Origin: an uncultured Gammaproteobacteria bacterium
Lineage (GTDB): Bacteria > Patescibacteriota > Patescibacteriia > UBA9570 > XYC2-FULL-38-9
DNA: 64,000 bases
Reading direction: 5' to 3'
NCBI GenBank assembly: GCA_964344485.1
Contig: CAYFNF010000003.1
Span: 148,467 to 212,466 of the forward strand
Shown: piece by piece, positions 5,894-41,677 of the stretch
Numbering within the stretch: the first letter of the stretch is position 1
Layout: every line of letters begins with the position of its first letter
Translations under genes and position numbers: made by a program
The notes under the pieces: generated by a model
Database searches by the model: none
What the model saw: the letters and a program-made list of their open reading frames with translations, nothing else
What the model was told of the DNA's origin: nothing

Positions 5894-5943
5894 TGTTGTA
5901 TTATACTACTATCTGTCTCTATTCTGGGTCTGAATTACTGCTT

Positions 5944-5980
5944 TGTCAATATTGACAGCTTTTACTACGTGATATATAGT
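5944..5980 (+). promoter_or_regulatory. Sigma70-like promoter TTGACA-17-TATAGT, with its -35 inside a 14-bp palindrome
   Basis: TTGACA at 5952-5957, a 17-nt spacer, and TATAGT at 5975-5980. TGTCAATATTGACA (5944-5957) is a perfect palindrome that places a second TTGACA on the minus strand. Confidence 0.5.
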
Positions 5981-5989
5981 ACTCGCAAC

Positions 5990-6040
5990 ATGAAGAACCA
6001 CGTATACAACGCTACAGTAACAACTACCCACCTTATGTGA
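5990..6040 (+). other. Mini-ORF (16 codons, MKNHVYNATVTTTHLM) or small RNA within a promoter-terminator unit
   Basis: The ATG is 9 nt after the TATAGT box, the same leaderless geometry as real genes here. There is no SD. The unit is followed by the terminator at 6070-6092. Confidence 0.3.
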
Positions 6041-6069
6041 GGCGTTGTTTAGTTTGTATCAATACCCTA

Positions 6070-6092
6070 GCGCCTCACTCGAGGCGCTTTTT
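6070..6092 (+). terminator. Intrinsic terminator
   Basis: GCGCCTC-ACTC-GAGGCGC (7-bp GC-rich stem) followed by TTTTT. Confidence 0.65.
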
Positions 6093-6107
6093 GATTATTT
6101 ATTCATT

Positions 6108-6235
6108 ATGAACTTTCTCTTTTTTCAATCAACTACTACACCGTTATTGCTCTTCTTCCTCACTGGAACAGTGCCGTAATTAGTGTTGTGTAGTTGAAAG
6201 GAAGAAGAGCGCGGTCCGAATGGGCCGTGTTTTTG
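6108..6235 (+). promoter_or_regulatory. Structured leader upstream of the carboxylate-amine ligase gene: mini-ORF, long-range helix, inner hairpin and a second terminator
   Basis: A 23-codon ORF spans 6108-6179 (MNFLFFQSTTTPLLLFFLTGTVP). A perfect 12-bp inverted repeat pairs GCTCTTCTTCCT (6149-6160) with AGGAAGAAGAGC (6199-6210). An inner hairpin CACTG-GAA-CAGTG lies at 6161-6173. CAACTAC (6130-6136) is complementary to GTAGTTG (6190-6196). Terminator CGCGGTCC-GAAT-GGGCCGTG plus TTTTT lies at 6210-6235. Confidence 0.45.
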
Positions 6236-6263
6236 TTCTTTTGAATGTAAAGGAGGAATTCCA

Positions 6264-7232
6264 ATGTATGGAATTGAAGCAGAGTATCTGATGACGAGTC
6301 ATCGCATCCAAGATGTGCTCAAGCTGCAGCTCCCGGGCGTGACCGCCGAGTTCTTCGACTTCATGGTCGAGATCATCACGGATCCGCACGCGCGTGCACG
6401 TCAGGCTGTGGACCAGCTGGAGCGTCGGGTGCAAAGAATGCGTCGACGAGGTGTGGAGCTCGAGCAGTGGGCGTCCTTCCCGGACCGAGTTCAGCCGATT
6501 ACGTTCACGGACGTGGTCGCAGACAGCCCGTACTACCGCTGGGTCTATGACCAAGCGTGTAGATTCACGGGTCATGAGCCGCTGGACCTGCACCATGTGG
6601 GCATGCACCTGAACTACTCGTGCTCGGACATGAGCGAAAACGAGCTGGTGCACGCGGTGAACTGGTGTCGGTGCATGAACTTCTTGTTCATCCTGTTCTC
6701 AGCAAACTCACCGTTCCAGAATGGGCAGTCCTGCGGGCTACTGTCACGACGGTCATATCAGTACCCCAACCGATACGACGTCCCGCTGTGGGAAAGCGCC
6801 GTCGCGTTCAAGCGCTGGATCCAGGAGCAAGAAGCGTTGTATCGCATCTACCCTGGAAAAGGTCGCTGCTGGATGACGGTCTGCCCGCGCTTAGAGGATA
6901 ATGATTTCCGCAAACCGATTCAACGGATCGAACTGCGATCGTTAGACTCAGGCACCAATGTCCGCTTCGGTGTTGTGCACGGGTGCTGCAAGCTACTCGA
7001 GCGCATTGTCTTGCGCGCACGCCAAGGAGCGCCCCTGCCAGCGCAACTGAACGAACTGCAGCACAACGATCGAGAGGTCTCGCGGCTCGGAGCAAGCGCA
7101 TGGGTACGCTTGAATGGGCAAGAGTTCTGCGTGCAGCAGCTCGCTGAACAATGGGCAGCGGGTATCGACACGCTGGAGCAGATATTAACGCACGGATGCG
7201 CAGCACAATCGTCCTTGCGCTACTGCGTTTAA
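6264..7232 (+). CDS. Carboxylate-amine ligase, glutamate-cysteine ligase family 2 (YbdK-like) (high-GC island B)
   Basis: The N-terminal YGIEAEYLM and EFFDFMVEIITDP..ARQAVDQLERRV follow the GCS2 pattern (G-x-E-x-E, then E...E..T.P with a helical region). At 322 aa it is shorter than typical YbdK. AAAGGAGG lies 7 nt upstream of the ATG. Line 6361-6420 has 38/60 G+C. Confidence 0.65.
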   Translation: MYGIEAEYLMTSHRIQDVLKLQLPGVTAEFFDFMVEIITDPHARARQAVDQLERRVQRMRRRGVELEQWASFPDRVQPITFTDVVADSPYYRWVYDQACRFTGHEPLDLHHVGMHLNYSCSDMSENELVHAVNWCRCMNFLFILFSANSPFQNGQSCGLLSRRSYQYPNRYDVPLWESAVAFKRWIQEQEALYRIYPGKGRCWMTVCPRLEDNDFRKPIQRIELRSLDSGTNVRFGVVHGCCKLLERIVLRARQGAPLPAQLNELQHNDREVSRLGASAWVRLNGQEFCVQQLAEQWAAGIDTLEQILTHGCAAQSSLRYCV

Positions 7233-7327: not shown

Positions 7328-8551
7328 TTATTTCATTCTGAACTTCTTCCATGGGCTCCACTTGCTCCACCCAGCATCATTGCCGCATCGCACTCTGAAA
7401 CGATAGTACTGTTTACTCTTCACGAATTTCTTTGACTTTTTCAGAAATTTTGAATTAGTAGTAAGTCCTTTAAACTTTTTCACAGATGTAAATTTCCCGT
7501 TTGCTTTCTTTTTTTGTAACACTGCTTGATAGGTATCGGCATTTGCTTTCGCTTTCCACCACAACTTTGCTGACTTCTTCTTTTTCTTTTTCACTTTCAG
7601 ATGCTTCTTTTTCTTGATCTTGCTTGGTGCAGTGAGTTCATTAATTGTAAAATTTGCTAATGCATAATCTTCTGCTGAATCTGCTGCGCCATCAGTGGTC
7701 ATAGCAACACTATGCGCTCCGGCAATCCCAGCAACAGCATCACTGATCAATAAATCATACGCATCTTCATTACTTTTAGCTACGTCGGTAAGGACCTCAC
7801 AACTGAGTACAGAATTCTGACTGAGGTCATACGTTAAAATCTCATCTAAAGTGCCTTTAGAATTGTCTATAGTTGCATCAGTTAGATCCCACCCTGATTC
7901 ACTAGGCGATTTATTCTCTGCAACAAACACAATGCTTAGCTCTTCTCCGCTAGATAATCCACGGCTAAGCGTAAAATAGAGTTCTAGATCCAGTGTAGAG
8001 CCGGCGGTTGCCTCAGTTGGAGAAACTGATAACGAACCTACGGCATTTCCAAGGCCTTGGATGGACACAGTATCATCAGTCATGGTTGCATTCGCACTTT
8101 CACTCAGAGGCTGCGTTGTAACTCCAAAGCGAATTGACGTTGCCTCATCAGGATTCACCGCATCTGCTAGGGTGACGGTATACTTGTCTGCGGGGAGTTT
8201 TGCGGATAACGTTAATACAGTGCCCCTGCCATCAAGCACTGGTGAAAAAATAAAATTGGAGTTGCCAATAGATCCCTCTGATGAAGGAACCACATTTTGT
8301 AAATTTACATACTCCGGACCGTCGTCTTCTGTAGAGAAAATTGAGATAGTTGAACCGCTGGGTAGATCTACGTTAGTAGTGACGGCGATAGTATACGTCT
8401 CGGTTTCCCCAGCAATAGAAGCTGTTGGTGCAGCGGATACTTCTGATATATTTGCATCTTCCGTTCCTTGCATGCTAAATGCTTGCGCAGATGATGGCGC
8501 GTACACCAGGACTGCTGCGATAGCGAGTGTAAGCAAGATTGTTTTTTTCAT
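7328..8551 (-). CDS. Secreted surface protein with a poly-lysine linker and a C-terminal fibronectin type III-like domain
   Basis: Signal peptide MKKTILLTLAIAAVLVYAPSSAQA. The body is S/T/D/E-rich. The linker is KIKKKKHLKVKKKKKKSAK. The FN3-like end is LWWKAKANADTYQ...YYRFRVRCGNDAGWSKWSPW. Confidence 0.7.
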   Translation of the reverse strand: MKKTILLTLAIAAVLVYAPSSAQAFSMQGTEDANISEVSAAPTASIAGETETYTIAVTTNVDLPSGSTISIFSTEDDGPEYVNLQNVVPSSEGSIGNSNFIFSPVLDGRGTVLTLSAKLPADKYTVTLADAVNPDEATSIRFGVTTQPLSESANATMTDDTVSIQGLGNAVGSLSVSPTEATAGSTLDLELYFTLSRGLSSGEELSIVFVAENKSPSESGWDLTDATIDNSKGTLDEILTYDLSQNSVLSCEVLTDVAKSNEDAYDLLISDAVAGIAGAHSVAMTTDGAADSAEDYALANFTINELTAPSKIKKKKHLKVKKKKKKSAKLWWKAKANADTYQAVLQKKKANGKFTSVKKFKGLTTNSKFLKKSKKFVKSKQYYRFRVRCGNDAGWSKWSPWKKFRMK

Positions 8552-8612
8552 ATGTATTCTTTATTGATTAAGTGTATAGTATAACAGAAAGCAATGCTTA
8601 AAAAAAGCTGCG

Positions 8613-9020
8613 CTATTTCATATTATACGATGCCTGGAGCCAGGATAATAATTCTTTATTAATGTCTTTCTTGCTTTTCAAATCAAGACAGATTTTATAG
8701 CTCTTTGCGGACAAAGGAACTACAGCTTTTATTCTTTGCTTGGCGATCTTCTGACTATAAATAAACCGGATCTCTAATCGGTCTTTTTTTGGTAGCGCTG
8801 CGAGAAAATCGAATGTGCCGAATAGGTGTACGCAACAAGGAATGGAAATAATCTTGCACTTTCCAATTTTACTGTTTATCTCCTTTACCAAATAATTAAA
8901 AAGCTCTTGGGCCACTGTTTTGTTCTTGAAATGCTCTTTGACATCTAGTCTTTGGCAGGTGTGTGGTTGTTTCGCTCTACGAAAAATACGTTCGCATTTA
9001 GGGCAGGTCCACATAAACAA
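8613..9020 (-). CDS. DUF5655-like small protein
   Basis: The N-terminal CPKCERIF..AKQPHTC followed by an alpha/beta region (FDFLAALPKKDRLEIRF) resembles the DUF5655 family layout. The start may be M3. Confidence 0.5.
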   Translation of the reverse strand: MFMWTCPKCERIFRRAKQPHTCQRLDVKEHFKNKTVAQELFNYLVKEINSKIGKCKIISIPCCVHLFGTFDFLAALPKKDRLEIRFIYSQKIAKQRIKAVVPLSAKSYKICLDLKSKKDINKELLSWLQASYNMK

Positions 9021-9070
9021 TTGCTCGTTTTACGGATTATTATTCTCAGTATATCATTTTTGTGCCATAT

Positions 9071-9091
9071 AAAAAACAGGGCGAGTCCCTG
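9071..9091 (-). terminator. Intrinsic terminator downstream of tRNA-Asn (hairpin usable on both strands)
   Basis: CAGGG-ACTCG-CCCTG followed by TTTTTT on the minus strand. Confidence 0.6.
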
Positions 9092-9101
9092 CTTTTATCT
9101 G

Positions 9102-9173
9102 CTCCGGGGGTGAGATTCGAACTCACGACCAATCGGTTAACAGCCGACTGCTCTACCACTGAGCTACCCCGGA
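9102..9173 (-). tRNA. tRNA-Asn (anticodon GTT)
   Basis: A 72-nt cloverleaf parsed by hand: TCCGGGG/TA/GCTC-AGTGGTA-GAGC/A/GTCGG-CTGTTAA-CCGAT/TGGTC/GTGAG-TTCGAAT-CTCAC/CCCCGGA/G. No CCA is encoded. Confidence 0.9.
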
Positions 9174-41096: not shown

Positions 41097-41113
41097 TTAA
41101 TTAACACTATTGT

Positions 41114-41677
41114 ATGATTATTTTCGGAATTATCGCCGCTGTAGTGGTAGTCATCGGCCTCTGGCTGATTCTCACATACAACGGCTTAATCCGATCACGC
41201 AATCAAGTTGATGAAGCGTGGTCAGATATTGACGTTCAATTAAAACGTCGGTATGACCTTATCCCAAACTTAATCGAAACCTGTAAGGGATATGCAAAAC
41301 ATGAGAACGAAACGTTCCAACAGGTAACAGAAGCTCGAGCTAATGCAATTAAAGCTGAACAAGCTGGCGACACCAAGAAACTCGGGGAAGCAGAGAACAT
41401 GCTGACCGGCGCATTGAAGAGCCTGTTTGCTGTTGCTGAGAACTACCCAGAATTGAAAGCAAATGAAAACTTTCTTCAATTGCAGGATGAACTCTCAGAC
41501 ACCGAGAACAAGATCCAGGCATCACGTCGTTTCTACAACGGAAATGTTCGAGACTTCAACACCAAGGTTCAAGTGTTCCCAACCAACTTAATTGCCGGAA
41601 TGCTCGGATTCAAGGACTATGAATTCTTCGAGATTGGAGAAGAGGAAGAACGAGAAAATCCACAAGTAAAATTCTAG
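41114..41677 (+). CDS. lemA: LemA family protein
   Basis: N-terminal TM segment followed by YNGLIRSRNQVDEAWSDIDVQLKRRYDLIPNL...ENYPELKANENFLQLQDEL...RRFYN. Confidence 0.9.
   Translation: MIIFGIIAAVVVVIGLWLILTYNGLIRSRNQVDEAWSDIDVQLKRRYDLIPNLIETCKGYAKHENETFQQVTEARANAIKAEQAGDTKKLGEAENMLTGALKSLFAVAENYPELKANENFLQLQDELSDTENKIQASRRFYNGNVRDFNTKVQVFPTNLIAGMLGFKDYEFFEIGEEEERENPQVKF

Follow-up and report, generated by a model that had tools for sequence, protein, structure and literature searches.

Leader-peptide attenuators such as thrL (Rfam family RF00506) and those of the trp, his, phe and leu systems combine a short open reading frame (ORF) that carries a run of cognate codons with mutually exclusive 1:2, 2:3 and 3:4 pairings of the leader RNA; in the thrL type, the position of the ribosome decides between the pairings and charged tRNA-Thr is the signal. 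Leaderless leader peptides, encoded by sensory ORFs that lack a Shine-Dalgarno (SD) sequence, lie at or near the 5′ end of the transcript and contain a run of a single amino acid, are represented by Deinococcus deserti, where 14 attenuator peptides were predicted on transcripts beginning with 5′-AUG (PMC4007540), and by mycobacteria, where experiments showed that a ribosome stalled in the run of a polycysteine leaderless small ORF blocks a structure that sequesters the downstream ribosome-binding site (bioRxiv 10.1101/834739). Two sensor units in series, so that read-through needs two decisions, occur as tandem T-boxes or riboswitches and in the Salmonella mgtCBR leader, whose tandem ORFs mgtM and mgtP each sense a signal of their own (ATP, and Pro-tRNA together with osmotic stress; PMC3641672). 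The leader analysed here resembles all three groups. It is located in a 64,000-nt stretch of DNA from an uncultured bacterium (contig CAYFNF010000003.1 of assembly GCA_964344485.1, positions 148,467 to 212,466 of the forward strand; hereafter the window, whose numbering is used throughout) and precedes a gene for a putative carboxylate-amine ligase. A note made from the letters of this DNA (the original prediction) had described an elaborate leader at 6108–6263 and had speculated about leader-peptide attenuation, with a riboswitch-like element as an equally possible alternative. Taken together, the comparative and RNA-folding evidence argues for classical Thr-specific leader-peptide attenuation, and we consider that 5952–6264 is probably a tandem ribosome-mediated transcription attenuator that senses the supply of charged tRNA-Thr.

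The comparison was made on the DNA around the retrievable ligase relatives (L001–L018), corresponding to approximately 11 diverged loci, and 14 units were analysed, two in the window and 12 in related loci. Upstream of the ligase gene or of a peptidase–ligase gene pair, every locus with enough upstream DNA contains one or two ATG-initiated mini-ORFs that encode a Thr run, and an intrinsic terminator lies behind each of them. The mini-ORFs comprise 13–27 codons, the Thr codons number 4–7 in each of the 12 units from related loci, and the ACN runs are always in frame with the upstream ATG and read as Thr. L002 appeared to be an exception until both of its units were found to precede the peptidase gene located directly upstream of the ligase gene, and in L005 and L018, where a contig end interrupts the upstream DNA, regions 2 to 4 are still visible. 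Tandem units are present in four lineages (the window, L001, L002 and L008). The neighbouring genes differ between the loci, yet the leader travels with the ligase, and its architecture is conserved across the diverged loci. A scan of genome contigs for further loci returned only the L001 contig, and a metagenome scan added one short contig.

Such Thr runs are rare outside these leaders. Only two of the 1058 mini-ORFs of the window contain at least four Thr in five codons, one of them being leader ORF 1 (ORF1), and the background is one other such mini-ORF in the ~250 kb of strand scanned. With a conservative background of three hits, in which the two L002 leader ORFs were counted, the binomial P for 9 out of 10 loci is ~5e-21. 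The other mini-ORF of the window, MTTTTAAIIPKIIIQ (41110–41154, minus strand), overlaps, in antisense, the beginning of the gene at 41114–41677; no obvious terminator was seen by eye in its displayed flank, where no terminator scan was made, and it is probably a chance occurrence.

The only good plus-strand promoter of the leader (Table 1) has a −10 element that ends 9 nt before the ATG of ORF1, and the promoter scan found no plus-strand promoter-like site between 5980 and the ligase ATG at 6264. Transcripts must therefore pass both terminator 1 and terminator 2, which bears out two statements of the original prediction, namely that no promoter lies between terminator 1 and the ligase ATG and that expression of the ligase requires read-through of two terminators. 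In most of the loci, the −10 element ends 6–12 nt before the first leader ATG and an SD is missing, indicating that the first leader ORFs are leaderless or nearly so; judged from its sequence context, ORF1 would belong to the same type.

The clearest attenuator of this leader lies outside the 6108–6263 stretch. In unit 1 (5990–6093), located upstream of it, ORF1 lacks an SD and carries the regulatory codons ACA GTA ACA ACT ACC at 6014–6028. Region 2a contains GTGAGGCG(TTG), which is complementary to CGCCTCAC in the 5′ arm of terminator 1 over a perfect 8 bp, and the corresponding 2:3 duplex (−18.2 kcal/mol) has a p of 0.003 against dinucleotide shuffles of the spacer, which were used for all 2:3 and 1:2 duplexes. 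Region 2b (6042–6057) adjoins region 2a and pairs back onto the Thr-codon run of ORF1; this 1:2 duplex is present, and taken alone it is not significant (−10.5 kcal/mol, p 0.24). Each unit was folded with the ribosome footprint forced to be single-stranded at the Thr codons or at the stop codon. With the modelled ribosome at Thr1 or Thr2 of ORF1, the antiterminator replaced the stem of terminator 1 (0/8 pairs kept at Thr1), and with the ribosome at the ORF1 stop the terminator was restored. According to this model, a ribosome that reaches the ORF1 stop would cover region 2a (6037–6047) and allow terminator 1 to form, whereas a ribosome stalled at the early Thr codons would leave region 2a free to pair with 6068–6078, so that terminator 1 would be destroyed and RNA polymerase would read on. 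As modelled, unit 1 is thus a textbook leader-peptide attenuator.

The same behaviour was found in most of the family. In 12 of the 14 units, the terminator gave way to the antiterminator when the footprint was placed at Thr1 or Thr2, and it re-formed with the ribosome at the last Thr codon or at the stop. The stop codon is located inside region 2a or at most 6 nt from it, and 20–37 nt before the terminator, in all 14 units. When the 14 units were combined, the 2:3 (antiterminator) duplexes gave a Fisher p of 1.4e-10, and the 1:2 duplexes, formed by the Thr codons with the segment past region 2a, a p of 3e-6. The leader thus combines a run of codons for one amino acid, a terminator before the gene with no intervening promoter, and 1:2 pairing together with a characteristic placement of the stop codon. 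We infer that the leader ORFs are translated and that Thr limitation would lead to read-through.

The architecture shared by the loci also bears on two other explanations of the leader. A translation-independent RNA sensor, namely a riboswitch, a T-box-like binder of tRNA-Thr with ACN specifiers or a protein-binding element, would account for the strong non-random fold described below and for mini-ORFs without an SD, and the ACN repeats could in principle pair with tRNA-Thr anticodons. Rfam searches, however, returned only tRNAs and chance hits for the window (at the gathering threshold) and for the leader (at E ≤10), and only tRNAs for ten related loci; no T-box or riboswitch was found at E ≤10 in the window leader or at E ≤1 in L001. 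No conserved unpaired core is evident. What the aligned leaders have in common is the ATG, the ACN run, region 2 and the terminator, not the core of a riboswitch or T-box; the ATG, the in-frame ACN run and the fixed stop recur in 14/14 units, and the run is always Thr in the ATG frame. A sensor of this kind is very improbable, and the riboswitch as an equal alternative is unsupported, as there is no Rfam match and the loci share the ACN run, the position of the stop and the terminator but no ligand core. Sub-threshold Infernal hits of the L001 units were to Phe_leader, Thr_leader and Trp_leader. The Thr_leader hit (RF00506) of L001 unit 2 reached 26.2 bits (E 0.029) against a gathering threshold of 55, and the window leader gave no hit at E ≤10, which places them outside that Rfam family.

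Alternatively, the Thr-rich mini-ORFs could encode precursor or substrate peptides similar to RiPPs (ribosome-made peptides that are modified after translation), modified by the ligase, with the hairpins setting the stoichiometry of peptide and enzyme transcripts. Small peptide genes with leaky terminators behind them, just before a modifying enzyme, are typical of RiPP loci, and the ligase superfamily includes peptide and protein ligases such as PafA. The leader peptides (Table 1), however, share beyond the Thr run only a preceding aromatic residue (in several) and an N-terminal motif (in three lineages), and their C-termini and lengths vary. Most of them contain no Asp or Glu, and no Lys is conserved, so a carboxylate-amine ligase would find no conserved side-chain substrate. 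No conserved protease, exporter or immunity gene is found nearby, the neighbours being different in every locus; in L002, the peptidase gene sits between the peptides and the ligase. Neither a conserved recognition or core sequence nor the accessory genes of a RiPP locus are thus present, and a peptide-coding role leaves unexplained why the Thr codons are paired and why the stop codon lies on the antiterminator arm. We regard this possibility as quite improbable.

Table 1. Features of the ligase leader and its surroundings in the window, and leader peptides of the related loci.
Feature	Position	Strand	Sequence	Remarks
Divergent ORF, 305 amino acids	4976–5893	−		No family match
Intergenic stretch with leader	5894–6263			Between the divergent ORF and the ligase ORF
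Promoter, sigma-70 type	5952–5980	+	TTGACA-17-TATAGT	11/12 matches (promoter scan)
Leader ORF 1 (ORF1)	5990–6040	+	MKNHVYNATVTTTHLM, stop	16 codons, run T-V-T-T-T
Region 2a	6037–6047	+		5′ strand of antiterminator 1; pairs with 6068–6078; holds ORF1 stop codon 6038–6040
Terminator 1	6069–6093 (stem 6069–6088)	+	AGCGCCTC-ACTC-GAGGCGCT + T5	−14.5 kcal/mol
Leader ORF 2 (ORF2)	6108–6179	+	MNFLFFQSTTTPLLLFFLTGTVP, stop	23 codons, no SD
Pyrimidine tract Py1	6113–6126	+	CUUUCUCUUUUUUC	ORF2 codons 2–7; can pair with Pu1 or ligase SD
Region 1 (arm A)	6129–6142	+		Overlaps ORF2 Thr codons; pairs with A′ 6182–6198
Py2	6149–6160	+	GCTCTTCTTCCT	5′ arm of 12-bp helix; ORF2 codons 14–18
Inner hairpin	6161–6173 (element 6161–6175)	+	CACTG-GAA-CAGTG	
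Arm A′ (region 2b)	6182–6198	+		Partner of Thr-codon arm
Pu1	6199–6210	+	AGGAAGAAGAGC	3′ arm of 12-bp helix; SD-like purine tract abutting terminator 2
Terminator 2	6210–6243 (stem and T5 6210–6234)	+	CGCGGTCC-GAAT-GGGCCGTG + T5 (RNA: CGCGGUCC-GAAU-GGGCCGUG, then UUUUUGUUCUUUU)	
Ligase SD region	6250–6259	+	AAAGGAGGAA	
Ligase, 322 amino acids	6264–7232	+		YbdK/GCS2-fold carboxylate-amine ligase homologue; strong SD
L001 leader peptides			MRNRRFTTTTLNFLFSR and MNLFILTTTTTTTNSPPV	
L002 leader peptides			MRNVRFTTTTTDTIFIG and MNFYQLTTTTTTASPP	Before PepT-like M20 peptidase gene, then ligase
L003 leader peptide			MTYCGRYTTTTLLTRLPS	
L004 leader peptide			MNNSPKKQLYTTTTTP	
L006 leader peptide			MKSVFKTTTTKLP	
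L008/9 leader peptides			MQYTRTSITTTTTSTPIPRS and MFSIHHSLLQTTTTTTTIGRGALLLGE	
L010 leader peptide			MNCHIRCTTTTTLTRLPS	
L011–14 leader peptide			MHVSLLVAPITTTTSTTSRSG	
L015/16 leader peptide			MMLAKYTTATTTTTS	Ligase only 30% identical

The elements that the original prediction had listed for this leader are real. The upstream mini-ORF with terminator 1, the 23-codon ORF, the inner hairpin and the terminator stem with T5 before the ligase gene were recovered as described, terminator 2 also by the terminator scan, and both mini-ORFs contain the Thr runs (TVTTT and STTT). The second run, encoded by ACT ACT ACA at 6132–6140, overlaps a pairing arm as proposed, since region 1 spans the ORF2 Thr codons: CAACTAC at 6130–6136 is complementary to 6190–6196 and, with one bulge, the pairing extends to approximately 6129–6142:6182–6198 (−13.9 kcal/mol; p 0.007 against shuffles for A:A′). 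The 12-bp complement of 6149–6160 with 6199–6210 is perfect (−19.5 kcal/mol) and non-random, a perfect inverted repeat of at least 12 bp having been found in 1 of 1000 dinucleotide shuffles of 6095–6240, and its coordinates place it in the predicted A-B-A′-B′ order with the 7-bp pairing. Folding of the leader, which the original prediction had called for, yielded a structure stable beyond chance: the minimum free energy (MFE) of 6095–6240 is −49.2 kcal/mol, compared with −27.7 ± 3.8 kcal/mol for shuffled sequences (z = −5.7; 0/200 shuffles as stable). Terminator 2 has a core of −12.8 kcal/mol, which an extension to 13 bp by A-tract:U-tract pairs (6205–6234) brings to −18.2 kcal/mol, and in the free leader its stem forms with a probability of at least 0.98. 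For the 12-bp helix, by contrast, the equilibrium ensemble calculated for the free RNA gives a probability of ~0, and the nested combination of A:A′ with 6117–6126:6200–6209 wins; the folding model predicts the 12-bp helix only if something, such as a ribosome, shields the 5′ part. The predicted partner of Py1 is Pu1 (6200–6209) in the terminated leader and the ligase SD (6250–6259) in the read-through RNA.

Unit 2 (6108–6243) appears to be a duplicate of unit 1, and two repeats are consistent with this origin: CCTCACTCGA (6073–6082), from the 5′ arm and the loop of terminator 1, is found again as CCTCACTGGA (6158–6167), where the 12-bp helix meets the inner hairpin, and CAACTAC is present in both Thr runs. 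At the DNA level, unit 2 can be aligned to the second units of L001 and L002; the TTATGAA(T/C)TT start, the ACN run, the CCTC tract and CAGTG are conserved, and ORF2, whose ATG lies 14 nt past the U-tract of terminator 1 in A/U-rich surroundings, is homologous to their second leader ORFs (MNLFILTTTTTTT... in L001 and MNFYQLTTTTTT... in L002). The distance from the stop to the terminator, 34 nt, is inside the family range. We also noted that the ORF2 frame is open back to a TTG 0–7 nt past the ORF1 stop in three of the four tandem loci (window 6045–6179; L001 5766–5873; L008 4781–4918), and that in L008 ORF1 and ORF2 share one frame with a single TGA between them. Reinitiation from the ORF1 stop into the ORF2 frame was considered on this basis and found unconvincing, as the pattern is not seen in L002 and the joint chance is ~0.03.

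The differences from the homologous units concern the antiterminator. The segment TTGAGGCAGTG of region 2a in L002, which contains the stop codon, corresponds to CTGGAACAGTG in unit 2 of the window, where the stop is lost (it reads TGG) and ORF2 continues for five codons more. The inner hairpin segment, homologous to region 2a of L002, shows a degenerate pairing with the 5′ arm of terminator 2. An insertion of ~22 nt, without counterpart in the L001 and L002 units, holds Pu1 and A′. A pairing that involves the terminator's 5′ arm and becomes favoured on stalling was found in unit 1 and not in unit 2, which in the model appears to have lost competitive antiterminator function. The 12-bp helix does not take over this part, as it shares with terminator 2 only C6210 and the A-tract extension. 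Its own 5-bp extension (6140–6144:6211–6215, with a 4-nt bulge) reaches the terminator arm and was considered as an antiterminator, but in the presence of the 3′ arm it loses thermodynamically to the terminator, and a ribosome that stalls in the Thr run of ORF2 would also mask it. If anything, the 12-bp helix would, by its crossing topology and a 3-nt overlap, exclude the remnant of the canonical antiterminator.

Unit 2 may therefore be pictured as a homologue of the second Thr attenuators of three other lineages that would have kept the Thr-run ORF, A:A′, the position of the stop and the terminator, lost the competitive antiterminator and gained a 12-bp helix whose 3′ arm lies in the window-specific insertion. 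With the antiterminator lost and the helix gained, terminator 2 would most likely hold basal expression down as a second gate that is largely unconditional, and the Thr-dependent role left to ORF2 would most plausibly be translational. In read-through RNA, Py1 is predicted to pair with the ligase SD, which would be set free by a ribosome stalling at the Thr codons of ORF2. In the model of the free full-length leader, the tract in ORF2 codons 2–7 (6114–6122) pairs with the SD with a probability of ~0.9; the unpaired probability of the SD is 0.03 in the free RNA or with the ribosome at the ORF2 stop, and 0.3–0.73 with the ribosome at Thr1 of ORF2. The 12-bp helix may control access to the ligase ribosome-binding site. 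SD masking as a trait of the whole family was rejected, since stall-dependent unmasking is predicted in the window alone and in none of eight other loci; it is in the window, too, that unit 2 is without an antiterminator. At 6257–6275, the end of the SD region forms part of a 7-bp hairpin, AATTCCA-ATGTA-TGGAATT, and the ligase start codon is located in the loop.

A number of observations weigh against the tandem attenuator. By MFE, L004 shows no switch, and L003 has weak 1:2 and 2:3 pairings. Neither leader ORF of the window has an SD, ORF1 being assigned a leaderless start and ORF2 a start in an A/U-rich stretch. In unit 2, terminator 2 remained intact (7/7) in every modelled ribosome state (free, at any Thr codon or at the stop), the best 2:3 duplex (−9.7 kcal/mol, p 0.37 against shuffles) is at the level of chance, and ORF2 contains only three Thr codons, compared with 6–7 in the second units of L001, L002 and L008; for these reasons, unit 2 may not be a Thr sensor at all. 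Since terminator 2 persisted in all of these states, the 12-bp helix is not a conventional antiterminator in the model. No relative of more than 50% identity was found that would allow covariation to be sought in the unit 2 helices. SD masking is treated here as a hypothesis, as it depends on a thermodynamic prediction for a low-complexity pyrimidine–purine pairing (−10.2 kcal/mol) and is confined to the window. Leader-peptide attenuation, which the original prediction had offered as a speculation, thus finds strong support at the level of the whole leader, with Thr mini-ORFs and terminators in all loci with upstream DNA and switching structures in most of the units, and finds none as the specific mechanism of unit 2, in which terminator 2 is never displaced in the model and the antiterminator pairing does not exceed chance.

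The persistence of terminator 2, the chance-level 2:3 pairing, the few Thr codons and the TGG in place of the stop codon of the L002 unit are also what speaks for unit 2 being merely a decayed duplicate, with terminator 2 as a constitutive partial damper and with ORF2, A:A′ and the 12-bp helix having no regulatory role today. Decaying sequence would not, however, be expected to contain the 12-bp helix and the A:A′ pairing, both of which are rare in shuffles, or to fold with the z-score given above; ORF2 is still open, with the conserved MNF... start, and the spacing of its stop and terminator has stayed within the family range. We regard decay as a serious possibility, if on balance an unlikely one; it is limited to unit 2 and is compatible with a working attenuator in unit 1. 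The peptide itself suggests another function for ORF2, since MNFLFFQSTTTPLLLFFLTGTVP is hydrophobic and could be a small hydrophobic protein, such as a type I toxin or a membrane peptide, with the structured RNA serving its antisense or stability control. A weak minus-strand promoter-like site (6132–6105, TTGATT-16-CATAAT), from which an antisense transcript would run across terminator 1 and ORF1, would fit this idea, although it matches at only 9/12 positions. The hydrophobic tail of ORF2 stems from the pyrimidine tract of the RNA helix, and the homologous second ORFs (MNLFILTTTTTTTNSPPV, MNFYQLTTTTTTASPP and MFSIHHSLLQTTTTTTTIGRGALLLGE) are not membrane-like; the toxin explanation fails on this lack of hydrophobicity in the homologues and hardly deserves credence.

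The gene controlled by the leader encodes a protein with a match to Pfam GCS2 (PF04107; 41.4 bits against a cutoff of 21), and the NCBIfam cutoffs are far from reached (TIGR02050, 42.6 vs 176.4; TIGR02048, 38.2 vs 249). Its AlphaFold model (predicted local distance difference test score 95.9) superimposes on the YbdK structures 1R8G and 1TT4 with template modelling (TM) scores of 0.72–0.77, at ~14–15% sequence identity and a profile E-value against PDB sequences of ~0.5; GCL, PafA/Dop and glutamine synthetase are more distant matches. Invariant Glu, His and Arg residues in the family point to retention of the superfamily's putative metal and nucleotide site. Even the label 'ligase' is uncertain, as the superfamily includes hydrolases (Dop). 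The family is tiny, with ~15 relatives at 30–50% identity: a word-indexed search found 7 proteins among 5.8 billion, 10 representatives with E <1e-30 were found among 1.84 billion, and a profile search found 14. Our literature search found no description of the ligase family or of its leader, and no conserved neighbours of the window ligase were found.

The leader implies that the ligase would be made when threonine or Thr-tRNA is short, and three features of the family are consistent with this reading of the sequence. First, Thr constitutes 3.1% of the ligase, the lowest value among the 35 window ORFs of at least 200 amino acids (median 6.2%), and the family mean of 4.1% is below that of the neighbours in most, not all, loci; a low Thr content is consistent with a protein made under Thr limitation. 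Second, in two lineages the ligase gene follows a gene for a PepT-like M20 peptidase: in L002 (4586–5919; TIGR01883, E 1e-49) the ligase lies 81 nt downstream, and in L017 (1–198) the same peptidase, 64% identical at its C-terminus, is directly upstream. The peptidase is a possible functional partner of the ligase. Third, in L001 the next gene after the ligase (7333–9135) encodes threonyl-tRNA synthetase (TIGR00418, E 1e-202) and has its own structured leader of 340 nt. A T-box before this thrS gene was considered because of a T-box-like GGTGGAACCG seen by eye and was dropped, as there is no Rfam hit at E ≤1. A general link to aminoacyl-tRNA synthetases was likewise rejected, threonyl-tRNA synthetase being downstream only in L001, the synthetase of L008 being that for glycine and the nearby tRNAs being those for Met and Asn. 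Possible roles of the ligase include ATP-dependent supply, salvage or sparing of threonine, or countering the inhibition of threonyl-tRNA synthetase. A broader proposal, that the ligase is the core of an unrecognised Thr-limitation response and that unit 2 has been rewired from transcriptional to translational control, with the 12-bp helix locking terminator 2 on, is one that we put forward tentatively and hold to be doubtful.

Some further observations concern the composition and the surroundings of the gene. The ligase gene is richer in G+C than its surroundings in nearly every locus (window, 57.8% vs 45.6%, with a G+C fraction of 0.70 at third codon positions; L001, 53% vs 38%; L008, 59% vs 49%; L015, 42% vs 35%), which could reflect repeated horizontal transfer of a leader–ligase module or a compositional constraint. 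A phosphoribosyltransferase gene (PF00156; 4390–4914, minus strand), two genes away in the window, is also a G+C island (63% vs ~45%). Upstream of the leader, the perfect palindrome TTGTCAATATTGACA (5944–5958) consists of two back-to-back −35 hexamers that belong to divergent promoters, the plus-strand one of the leader and a minus-strand one (5949–5921) for the 305-amino acid ORF; it could be an operator as well.

What is new at this locus is the family of ligase leaders, the Thr specificity before an orphan enzyme that is not biosynthetic, the duplication of a sensor for the same signal in four lineages and the divergent second unit of the window; the mechanism is of the known thrL/trpL type and introduces no new regulatory principle. 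Runs of regulatory codons are among the most specific clues to function, and a leader specific for Thr alone that is conserved over ligases of 30–50% identity is such a clue for an orphan enzyme, with Thr-related substrates and the PepT-like partner as starting points. The locus also extends classical attenuation, here tandem and leaderless, to uncultured lineages that are poorly known, and it offers a natural comparison, as the duplicated attenuator copy of one lineage apparently lost its antiterminator and gained another helix.

In comparison with thrL, the leader ORFs described here have no SD, are apparently leaderless and lack Ile codons; they precede the gene of an orphan YbdK-like ligase instead of thrABC, and the units occur in tandem in four lineages. 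Regions 2a and 2b lie side by side without overlap, so that the mutual exclusion of 1:2 and 2:3 here depends in part on a crossing (pseudoknot-like) topology. The leaderless systems of Deinococcus deserti and mycobacteria differ in the amino acid sensed (Cys and others, compared with Thr here), in the lineages and in the target, which here is a gene without a known link to the sensed amino acid. The logic of the mycobacterial polycysteine ORFs matches the control of the ligase SD proposed for ORF2, whereas unit 1 would act through an intrinsic terminator and the mycobacterial system is translational. Unlike mgtM and mgtP, both ORFs of the window carry the same kind of codon run (Thr) and are evident duplicates. 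Finally, the window ligase has the fold and the Pfam domain of the YbdK/GCS2 ligases (1R8G, 1TT4, PF04107) but belongs to a distinct clade of ~15 sequences with a Thr-attenuator leader of its own.

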